Shown here: piece after piece, positions 3,301 through 4,267 of the stretch | How positions within the stretch are numbered: position 1 is the first letter of the stretch | How the letters are laid out: each line of letters begins with the position of its first letter | Sequence record: OX638288 | DNA length: 64,000 nucleotides | From: Escherichia phage UP19 | Strand: one strand, 5' to 3' | Position numbers and translations under genes: made by a program | The notes under the pieces: generated by a model | What the model saw: the letters and a program-made list of their open reading frames with translations, nothing else | Databases searched by the model: none | What the model was told of the DNA's origin: nothing

Positions 3301-3404
3301 TTGAAGCCTGTATCGATGGGTGGGACGTTTTTAAATTCGGTGCTGCATGTTTTTGCTTTGGTATCGTGTTCAGCCTGTGTATGAATGGTATTTTTGGGAA
3401 GTAG
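3297..3404 (+). CDS. hypothetical 35-aa hydrophobic peptide (MIEACIDGWDVFKFGAACFCFGIVFSLCMNGIFGK)
   Basis: ATG overlaps pseT.2 stop (ATGA coupling); single predicted TM segment; below the 60-aa ORF-track cutoff. Confidence 0.3.
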   Translation: MIEACIDGWDVFKFGAACFCFGIVFSLCMNGIFGK

Positions 3405-3438
3405 TTTACAAACTCTTGGGAGCAGAGTATAATGCTCC
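3404..3438 (+). promoter_or_regulatory. T4-type early promoter (GTTTAC 3404-3409, TATAAT 3428-3433) with GGAGCA/TGCTCC inverted repeat bracketing the -10
   Basis: GTTTACA ... 18 nt ... TATAAT; inverted repeat 3419-3424 / 3433-3438. Confidence 0.55.
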
Positions 3439-3467
3439 TACGGATTATAAAAATTGAGGAAATTATT

Positions 3468-3950
3468 ATGACATTACGTGATAACAGTTTTGTGGCTAAG
3501 CCTGAATACATTTCAAGTATTAAATCTCCTGTATTACAAAAGCTCCTTAAACTAGGGTCCTGTGCAAGCACTCCTATTGAAAAGAAGGCAACTTTCGATT
3601 TTGCTTGGGCTATTGTGGACGGTATTGATGTAGTAAGACAGGTAACTTTTTATGCTCCAGGGTCTATTGAGCCTTCACAGATTATTAATTTGAACGGAAG
3701 TAATTATATTACCATCCAACAGTGGTATCGTATGATGCGACCTGTTTGGGAATACCCTGAATTCATTGAAGAGTACAATGAAAAAGAACGTATTCGTGAG
3801 CTAGTAAAAAGTTTTGAATACGCAGCTAAACGCCACGGCCAGATGCAGCAAGCTGTGGCTTTAGGTGATGTTGATGAAAAATCAGCATATGAAAGTGGTA
3901 AACTTCTGAAAACCTGTCGCGAAGAACTTTATAAGGAGCTTGGTGTATGA
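3468..3950 (+). CDS. hypothetical protein (pseT-region accessory ORF)
   Basis: 160-aa ORF with SD GAGG 8 nt upstream of ATG 3468; follows the early promoter cassette. Confidence 0.55.
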   Translation: MTLRDNSFVAKPEYISSIKSPVLQKLLKLGSCASTPIEKKATFDFAWAIVDGIDVVRQVTFYAPGSIEPSQIINLNGSNYITIQQWYRMMRPVWEYPEFIEEYNEKERIRELVKSFEYAAKRHGQMQQAVALGDVDEKSAYESGKLLKTCREELYKELGV

Positions 3951-4267
3951 AAGAGTTATTAGAGAATTATATCAAGTGTTCAGATAATTATATTGATTCG
4001 TGTCACAACGTGGTATATGTGGATTTAGGCCGTGGAATTGTATTGAATGATGAAGACCCAGCTAAAACTTTAGATAAAGCAGGCAAAGCCCTTCGTCAGG
4101 CAGCCAAAGAAAAAGGTCTTGATATGGCTCAGCTTAAACACCATATGATTAAATTTATTTCGTCTAATGTTAGCAGCAAATCCAATAACAAGGCCACGGC
4201 TGAACTCTATAAAGGCCGTCGTGAACTTAACATTCGTATCCTTGAAGTTTTCTTAGGAATTAAATGA
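3947..4267 (+). CDS. hypothetical protein
   Basis: 106-aa ORF, ATGA-coupled to upstream and downstream genes. Confidence 0.5.

Follow-up and report, generated by a model that had tools for sequence, protein, structure and literature searches.

Between the o-spanin gene pseT.2 and pseT, Escherichia phage UP19 (sequence record OX638288, of which a stretch of 64,000 nucleotides (nt), hereafter the window, was analysed on one strand, 5' to 3') carries a predicted early promoter cassette followed by two coupled open reading frames (ORFs) of 160 and 106 amino acids (aa), ORF160 and ORF106. We put a probability of roughly 70% on the reading that this is a hyperplastic slot, in which a cassette of the promoter-early stem-loop (PeSL) type stands ahead of the independently shuffled ORF160 and ORF106, followed by pseT. 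The locus is an ordinary case of the known PeSL-associated modular shuffling and no new kind of element or system. A first-pass annotation of this DNA had named the same early promoter cassette and the two coupled ORFs, all of which were found where it had placed them, and had proposed a cassette insertion into the pseT operon. The elements concerned are as follows:

3404-3467, + strand: PeSL-type early promoter cassette (predicted)
3468-3950, + strand: ORF160 (phrog_4482)
3468-3779, + strand: ORF160 N-terminal α/β domain, aa 1-104, the variable and apparently swappable part
3780-3950, + strand: ORF160 C-terminal helical hairpin, aa 105-160 plus stop codon, highly conserved
3947-4267, + strand: ORF106 (phrog_2364), annotated as similar to RB32 ORF217c / JS98 orf217

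Occupancy of the pseT.2-pseT Slot

The distribution of the gene families was determined by tblastn against 50,697 phage records. ORF160 was found in 263 records and holds this place in eight genera or more; it occurs in a subset of the E. coli Dhakavirus and Gaprivervirus phages and in T4-like phages of Klebsiella, Enterobacter, Serratia, Erwinia, Citrobacter, Yersinia and Edwardsiella. ORF106 was found in 708 records, mainly from Escherichia and Shigella phages, T2 and T6 included, and PseT.1 in 819. The locus of 14 phages was then tabulated, each family being placed by tblastn (oSp, o-spanin gene; orf35, a 35-aa hydrophobic ORF; h, homologue):

T4: oSp – PseT.1 – PseT
T2: oSp – PseT.1 – ORF106 – PseT
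HX01, RB69 (Mosigvirus): oSp – PseT.1 – [cassette] – ORF106 – 63-aa ORF – PseT
Window, EcWhh-1, VR7: oSp – orf35 – [cassette] – ORF160 – ORF106 – PseT
JS98: as in the window, with a divergent ORF160 allele
fDHCT2: oSp – orf35 – [cassette] – ORF106 – PseT
CBH8, JD18: oSp – ORF160 – PseT.1h – PseT
Marfa: oSp – ORF160 – PseT.1h – 58-aa ORF – PseT
PG7: oSp – 32-aa ORF – ORF160 – 70-aa ORF – 119-aa ORF – PseT
Merlin: oSp – ORF160 – two other ORFs – PseT
phiR1-RT: oSp – ORF160 – three other ORFs – ORF106h – PseT

The T4 annotation bears out the first-pass statement that T4 has a single small gene, pseT.1 (75 aa), between pseT.2 and pseT; the window differs from T4 in this respect. ORF106 occurs without ORF160 in T2, HX01, RB69 and fDHCT2; in Karamvirus, Jiaodavirus, Marfavirus, Moonvirus and Winklervirus, ORF160 is found in this place unaccompanied by ORF106. 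Wherever the families co-occur, the relative order of ORF160, PseT.1 and ORF106 is consistent. Based on this occupancy across the sampled loci, the three unrelated families are long-standing residents of the slot, with lineages differing in what they retained, and the pattern fits an old slot of several genes, some of which were lost in particular lineages and others exchanged as modules. ORF106 is the usual pseT neighbour in T2, T6, Mosigvirus and others, T4 being one of those without it. The T4 slot is the smallest version among the genomes sampled, not the reference state.

In the T2 record PV958097 (locus 1480-1560), the ORF106 homologue follows pseT.1 directly, the promoter cassette being absent there; its 5' end is frameshifted and the annotated coding sequence starts from an internal ATG.

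A single recent insertion, by which the promoter, ORF160 and ORF106 entered a T4-like pseT.2-pseT.1-pseT operon as one cassette, is very improbable. Such an event would account for the lack of both ORFs in T4, for the mobile or dispersed cassette sequence and for the adjacent, coupled position of ORF160 and ORF106 in the window, EcWhh-1, JS98 and VR7; however, it is contradicted by the independent distribution of the two ORFs in the above table, where ORF106 stands alone in the four phages already named, ORF160 stands alone in PG7, JD18, Marfa, Merlin and CBH8, and phiR1-RT carries both with three other ORFs in between. In addition, Dhakavirus is without any pseT.1 to interrupt, and the identity profiles described below put module borders between ORF160 and ORF106. 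Of the insertion proposed in the first-pass annotation, there remain the difference in gene content from T4, with neither ORF related to pseT.1, the promoter as a conserved regulatory cassette found also at other loci, and ORF160 as a gene-sized module. The joint arrival of the promoter and both ORFs was not upheld, pseT.1 homologues were found 3' of ORF160 in CBH8, JD18 and Marfa, and T4 is not the ancestral state. Both ORFs are common but not universal, so that they are not universally conserved orthologues of known pseT-region genes.

Evidence for Module Exchange

Comparison of the window with fDHCT2 revealed an exact 480-bp block, corresponding to ORF160, to be present in the former and absent from the latter, with TATGA as the shared junction (window, …ATTATTATGA / CATTACGT…GGTGTATGA / AAGAG…, with slashes at the block borders; fDHCT2, …ATTATTATGAAAGAG…). 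fDHCT2 matches the 66-bp cassette at 100% identity, with the neighbouring coding DNA at ~70-90% and the 35-aa ORF at ~70-80% identity.

JS98 and the window share 95-100% identity between 2660 and the end of the cassette; this identity is lost at 3462 within the spacer between the Shine-Dalgarno (SD) sequence and the ATG, stays at 27-57% on the nt level through ORF160 codon 104 and is back at 100% at ~3780, coinciding with the start of the conserved C-terminal helix. The DNA flanking the diverged stretch is 98-100% identical. On these alignments, the JS98 difference is a swap of the ORF160 N-terminal domain, with the cassette as its one border and the hairpin-coding DNA as the other.

When compared with VR7 (Gaprivervirus), the segment 3140-3980 is 80-98% identical, with the spanin genes at 35-65% and ORF106 at 38-72%. 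Since this high-identity island sits in diverged flanks, it indicates that the orf35–cassette–ORF160 block was exchanged laterally. Junctions were seen at three kinds of place: where the cassette ends with SD/ATG, where genes meet in ATGA, and where the two ORF160 domains meet. ORF160 and ORF106 are separate, old Tevenvirinae modules, each kept, lost or exchanged independently of the other from lineage to lineage.

Promoter Cassette and Hairpin

The promoter is composed of a -35 box GTTTACA at 3404-3410, a 17-nt spacer and a -10 box TATAAT at 3428-3433. It scored 11/12 against the E. coli consensus TTGACA/TATAAT, with nothing else in 2000-5600 above 9/12, and 12/12 against the T4-type consensus TTTACA/TATAAT, being the sole perfect match within the 64-kb window, and it is conserved in hundreds of phages. 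The sequence 5' of the -35 box, where PeSLs have an AT-rich tract, is the 3' end of the 35-aa ORF (…GGTATTTTTGGGAAGTAG) and contains a short T-run only. On the other side, the SD sequence GAGGAAA at 3456-3462 is followed by the ATG at 3468. The mechanical ORF call starts at ATG 3432, inside the -10 box; ATG 3468 is preferred because transcription is expected to begin ~7 nt 3' of the -10 box. The 160-aa reading from ATG 3468 is the plausible one, and the longer ORF from 3432, which is carried by some annotations, is an artefact.

The -10 box is enclosed by two hairpin arms at 3417-3424 and 3433-3440, for which RNA folding of 3395-3475 gave an 8-pair stem of -16.2 kcal/mol (z -2.2). In a comparison of eight cassettes lined up on the -35 and -10 boxes, the register of the stem was constant, with 83% of the cells paired vs 31-50% with the partners slid. 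Changes on both sides were seen in five of the eight stem pairs, and the observed covariation score was reached by none of 500 shuffles.

A blastn search with 3402-3467 revealed the cassette in 727 records at 1292 places, many genomes carrying it two to four times. One copy, between motB.1 and motB in Tequatrovirus AR1, shows a compensatory stem change (GGAGCA/TGCTCC to GGACCA/TGGTCC); another stands 5' of the ORF106 homologue in HX01 and RB69. The database ORF106 homologues P0068 and P0072 are annotated with a leader "MLLRIIKIEEII", which translates cassette DNA, so that in their sources the cassette lies directly ahead of ORF106. An hhalign match between ORF160 and ORF106 (90% probability) was rejected as an artefact, because mis-called starts translate the shared cassette into this leader; the match is useful solely as a further sign of that sharing.

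Several points weigh against the above reading of the cassette and the slot. Promoter-like sites scoring at least 11/12 number seven in the window vs 4.0 ± 1.9 in shuffles, which is not above chance; because the site counts match the shuffled expectation, the case for the promoter is based on its position and conservation, and on the perfect score too. The set of eight cassettes is small and was partly assembled by similarity, which makes the covariation supportive, not conclusive. The stem is short, its eight pairs including G-U, and is not followed by a U-run, which renders intrinsic termination at the cassette doubtful; a terminator scan found no terminator at the cassette locus. Promoter activity of the cassette is a prediction, and the changes in the slot may be gains or losses.

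Similar sites were noticed elsewhere in the window. A second PeSL-like cassette at 5863 (GTTTACA-N17-TATAGT, stem GTAGGACT/AGTCCTAC around the -10 box, GAGGAAA) precedes a 184-aa ORF from ATG 5921 (JS98 orf212; region 5863-6474) that is absent from T4. A third site, at 9537-9605 in the gap 5' of ORF 9606-9971, has TTTACT-N16-TATTAT in a 16-bp hairpin (TTTGGTACAGGT…ACCTGTACCAAA) of -18.8 kcal/mol. Weaker or degraded promoter/hairpin sites lie at about 18019-18020 and 34828-34829, and a different subclass, with the hairpin 3' of the -10 box, was seen at 42641 on the minus strand.

A leader motif …GGATAAT(A/T)AA…TTGAGGAAA…ATG is kept 5' of ORF160 in Karamvirus, Marfavirus, Moonvirus and Winklervirus, the hairpin in these leaders being a GC-rich stem with a TTCG tetraloop (e.g. 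GAGGCCttcgGGCCTC). The ORF160 leader looks homologous across those genera, with the stem sequence turned over.

ORF160 and ORF106 Proteins

ORF160 gave a full-length match with phrog_4482 (E 1.6e-73 over 1-160/162) and ORF106 with phrog_2364 (E 8.1e-53 over 1-106/105). Together with the 35-aa ORF and PseT.1, they belong to four different PHROGs, all of unknown function. Because of the full-length PHROG matches, the cross-genus homologues and the confident structure models, we conclude that ORF160 and ORF106 are real genes.

The ORF160 model (predicted local distance difference test score, pLDDT, 92.6) shows an α+β N-terminal domain (aa 1-92) and a long antiparallel helical hairpin (helices 93-131 and 137-158). 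From ~residue 105, this hairpin is nearly invariant across the aligned family (FE-AAK-HG, ELY-ELGV), and the N-terminal part varies strongly. The ORF106 model (pLDDT 88.3) is a four-helix bundle, whose loop at aa 23-34 is variable and disordered.

Fold matches of ORF160 in BFVD were only to uncharacterised T4-like phage proteins, among them, in PM2, EcS1 and KPV15, proteins of 59-89 aa that consist of the hairpin on its own (29-51% identity). A profile search of 1.84 billion cluster representatives returned 25 proteins; apart from P0111, these were of ~100-170 aa or hairpin-only forms of 52-87 aa. P0111 (947 aa), a eukaryote-like coiled-coil or transposon protein, was judged spurious and rejected as a relative. 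By these searches, the ORF160 family is confined to T4-like phages.

Homology of ORF160 and ORF106 to pseT.1 was rejected, with BLASTP not significant (E 3.4; no alignment) and hhalign probabilities of 0.3% and 0.1%. A motif noticed by eye, L-I/V-x3-E-x-A-A-x3-G-x-Q, as a link to pseT.1 was dropped; hhalign aligned it at 0.3% probability. Profile scans of both proteins against Pfam, NCBIfam and PADLOC yielded sub-threshold noise and nothing above the curated thresholds, and among PDB sequence profiles ORF160 had no match and ORF106 none better than E 0.2. The literature searched for pseT.1, ORF217c, the PHROG ids and T-even accessory/anti-defence genes contained nothing on ORF160 or ORF106. 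The remote-homology searches thus found no informative relative of either protein, and the first-pass description of two ORFs of unknown function agrees with their PHROG assignment and the lack of curated-family matches; for want of such a relative, function can only be inferred.

Two of the non-significant PDB profile matches fall on one segment of ORF106, the helix-turn-helix (HTH) of Cgl2762 (2jn6, E 0.21) and PKZ Z-alpha (E 1.1), and both align the conserved G-x3-L-x3-A-x3-G-L-D-x3-L, with G46, A53, G57 and L63 invariant in the ORF106 family. They would be in line with ORF106 being a small HTH nucleic-acid-binding regulator of early gene expression; a Pfam scan of all 33 members gave no consistent HTH signal. 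The similarity is a lead only, and we consider such a regulator highly improbable.

Proposed Mechanism and Candidate Roles

T4-type early promoters are used by the unmodified host sigma-70 polymerase at the onset of infection, and ATGA overlaps favour translational coupling. Host sigma-70 RNA polymerase would start transcription at ~3440 immediately after infection. Because of the early promoter type and of the ATGA start/stop overlaps, which are present at both the ORF160/ORF106 and the ORF106/pseT junction, ORF160, ORF106 and PseT would be made together and early. As the hairpin lies 5' of the expected transcription start, it would be absent from the cassette's own transcript and could act only on spanin read-through RNA, by attenuation or stabilisation, or as DNA. 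At the DNA level, it may be part of a ~65-bp homology patch for phage recombination that swaps the adjacent ORFs.

ORF160 and ORF106 may be small cytoplasmic accessory factors, which would most likely bind host or defence proteins. In ORF160, the fast-diverging N-terminal α/β domain would provide target specificity and the conserved hairpin would serve as an oligomerisation or docking scaffold. This assignment of both proteins as host- or defence-directed binders, with the division of labour within ORF160, is speculative and tentative.

A wider proposal, which we regard as unlikely, combines these elements: ORF160 would be a modular counter-defence/host-takeover effector, ORF106 would belong to the same early anti-host programme and the hairpin would be a selected cis-element. 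The N-terminal domain would then be exchanged between near-identical phages, with the cassette and the hairpin-coding DNA as recombination arms, the ORF160 scaffold, which exists also in the form of the stand-alone 59-89-aa proteins of other T4-like phages, would carry this domain for recognition, and the -10 hairpin would serve recombination or read-through transcript control and not be an accident.

ORF106, and perhaps ORF160, could instead help PseT and RnlA to counter anticodon nucleases by tRNA repair, a role that would account for ORF106 standing almost invariably just 5' of pseT and for the ATGA overlap of the two genes. The ORF106 homologue is the immediate neighbour of pseT in T2, the Dhakaviruses, VR7 and phiR1-RT, in Mosigvirus a single ORF separates them, and the ORF106 stop overlaps the pseT start; yet PseT of T4 works without ORF106, which is absent from that phage, most non-E. 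coli genera are without it and it resembles no known RNA-repair component. Such a helper role is improbable. Both this and the HTH-regulator role of ORF106 are weaker alternatives to a host- or defence-binding role.

Genomic Context

The best megablast match of 2600-5200 was Escherichia phage EcWhh-1 (Dhakavirus), with 99.8% identity over the entire query, and 686 T4-family phage records were matched in total. By these matches, the window phage is assigned to the JS98-like T-even phages, genus Dhakavirus. The gene order on the + strand was read from the EcWhh-1 and JS98 annotations; the genes around the cassette, ORF160 and ORF106 are:

nrdB, denA, rnlA, + strand: first genes in this order, ahead of alc
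2172-2672, + strand: alc
2660-3013, + strand: pseT.3, i-spanin
3010-3300, + strand: pseT.2, o-spanin
3297-3404, + strand: 35-aa hydrophobic ORF (orf35, phrog_23289), start overlapping the pseT.2 stop (ATGA)
4264-5169, + strand: pseT, polynucleotide 5'-kinase/3'-phosphatase, last of the coupled gene chain
cd.4 onward to cd and gene 31, + strand: 3' of pseT

The 35-aa ORF takes the place held by pseT.1 in T4 and Mosigvirus. Its TAG stop codon directly adjoins the promoter, and a 63-nt gap separates it from ATG 3468. Tiny membrane-like ORFs were also seen 3' of pseT.2 in VR7, fDHCT2, PG7 (32 aa) and CBH8 (unannotated there). A link of the 35-aa hydrophobic ORF to lysis is possible.

Compared with JS98, fDHCT2 and VR7, pseT is a mosaic, with ~83-93% identity in 4280-4640 and 40-72% in 4700-5000. 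This drop in identity suggests a recombination tract within the region encoding the phosphatase domain (4700-5000, the 3' half). VR7 carries, on the opposite strand, a MobE-like homing endonuclease gene that overlaps the pseT 3' end (VR7 locus 3398-4080) and is absent from the window; in some relatives, it may be a further cause of gene conversion at this locus.

In hundreds of deposited genomes, ORF160 and ORF106 are already annotated as hypothetical proteins. The locus is a base-pair-resolved example of how early accessory genes are reshuffled in the T4 family, comprising an exact gene indel, a domain allele swap and a cassette reused at unrelated loci, and it corrects the T4-centred view of the slot, which in T4 is reduced and not the reference. 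It also directs attention to two widespread uncharacterised families (263 and 708 phage records) with confident structure models, for which natural ORF160-plus, ORF160-minus and allele-swapped relatives are usable as comparisons in host-range/anti-defence screens.

Comparison with Known Systems

T4 pseT.1 (phrog_2347; PF26888 in precomputed annotations) resembles the window ORFs in being a small early gene of unknown function in the slot between o-spanin and pseT, but has no detectable homology to ORF160 or ORF106. RB32 ORF217c and JS98 orf217 belong to the ORF106 family, window ORF106 being 70% identical to the JS98 protein, and VR7ORF239c belongs to the ORF160 family, with 90% identity to window ORF160; there is no difference in kind between these genes and the window ORFs.

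The T4 early promoter Pe133295, between cd.3 and cd.2, is similar to the window cassette, with a GTTTAC -35 box and a TATTAT -10 box in a 7-9-bp hairpin of the same register, followed by GAGGAAA and an ATG; its orthologue in the window is at 5863-5935. It differs in its stem sequence and its locus, and in T4 it drives cd.2 directly.

PeSLs are regulatory cassettes of T4-type phages (Arbiol et al. 2010, PMC2839356; Comeau et al. 2014, PMC4122927). Their promoters are early sigma-70-type promoters with the T4/PST consensus TTTACW-N17-TAYWAT (PMC4122927), which the window promoter fits at 12/12, and a subclass with the stem-loop overlapping the -10 box, as in the window, has been described (PMC2839356). 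An SD sequence and an ATG follow PeSLs, which are concentrated in hyperplastic regions and mark indels or replacements between close relatives (PMC2839356, PMC4122927). Likewise, the window cassette ends with the SD sequence GAGGAAA and ATG 3468 of the next ORF, lies in an intergenic, variable region and has near-identical copies at several loci. The crossovers observed for PeSLs lie in the interval from the -10 box to the ATG (PMC2839356, PMC4122927), and so do the junctions at which the adjacent ORF is missing (fDHCT2) or replaced (JS98) between close relatives of the window phage. Two differences were noted. Promoter and terminator activity and the formation of mini-circles have been shown for the RB49/phi1 PeSL cassettes (PMC2839356), whereas the window cassette is a prediction from sequence. 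Furthermore, ORF160 is flanked by a single cassette, its right-hand junctions being the ATGA junction or an internal conserved coding segment and not a second PeSL. With these differences in mind, the window cassette fits the published PeSL type.

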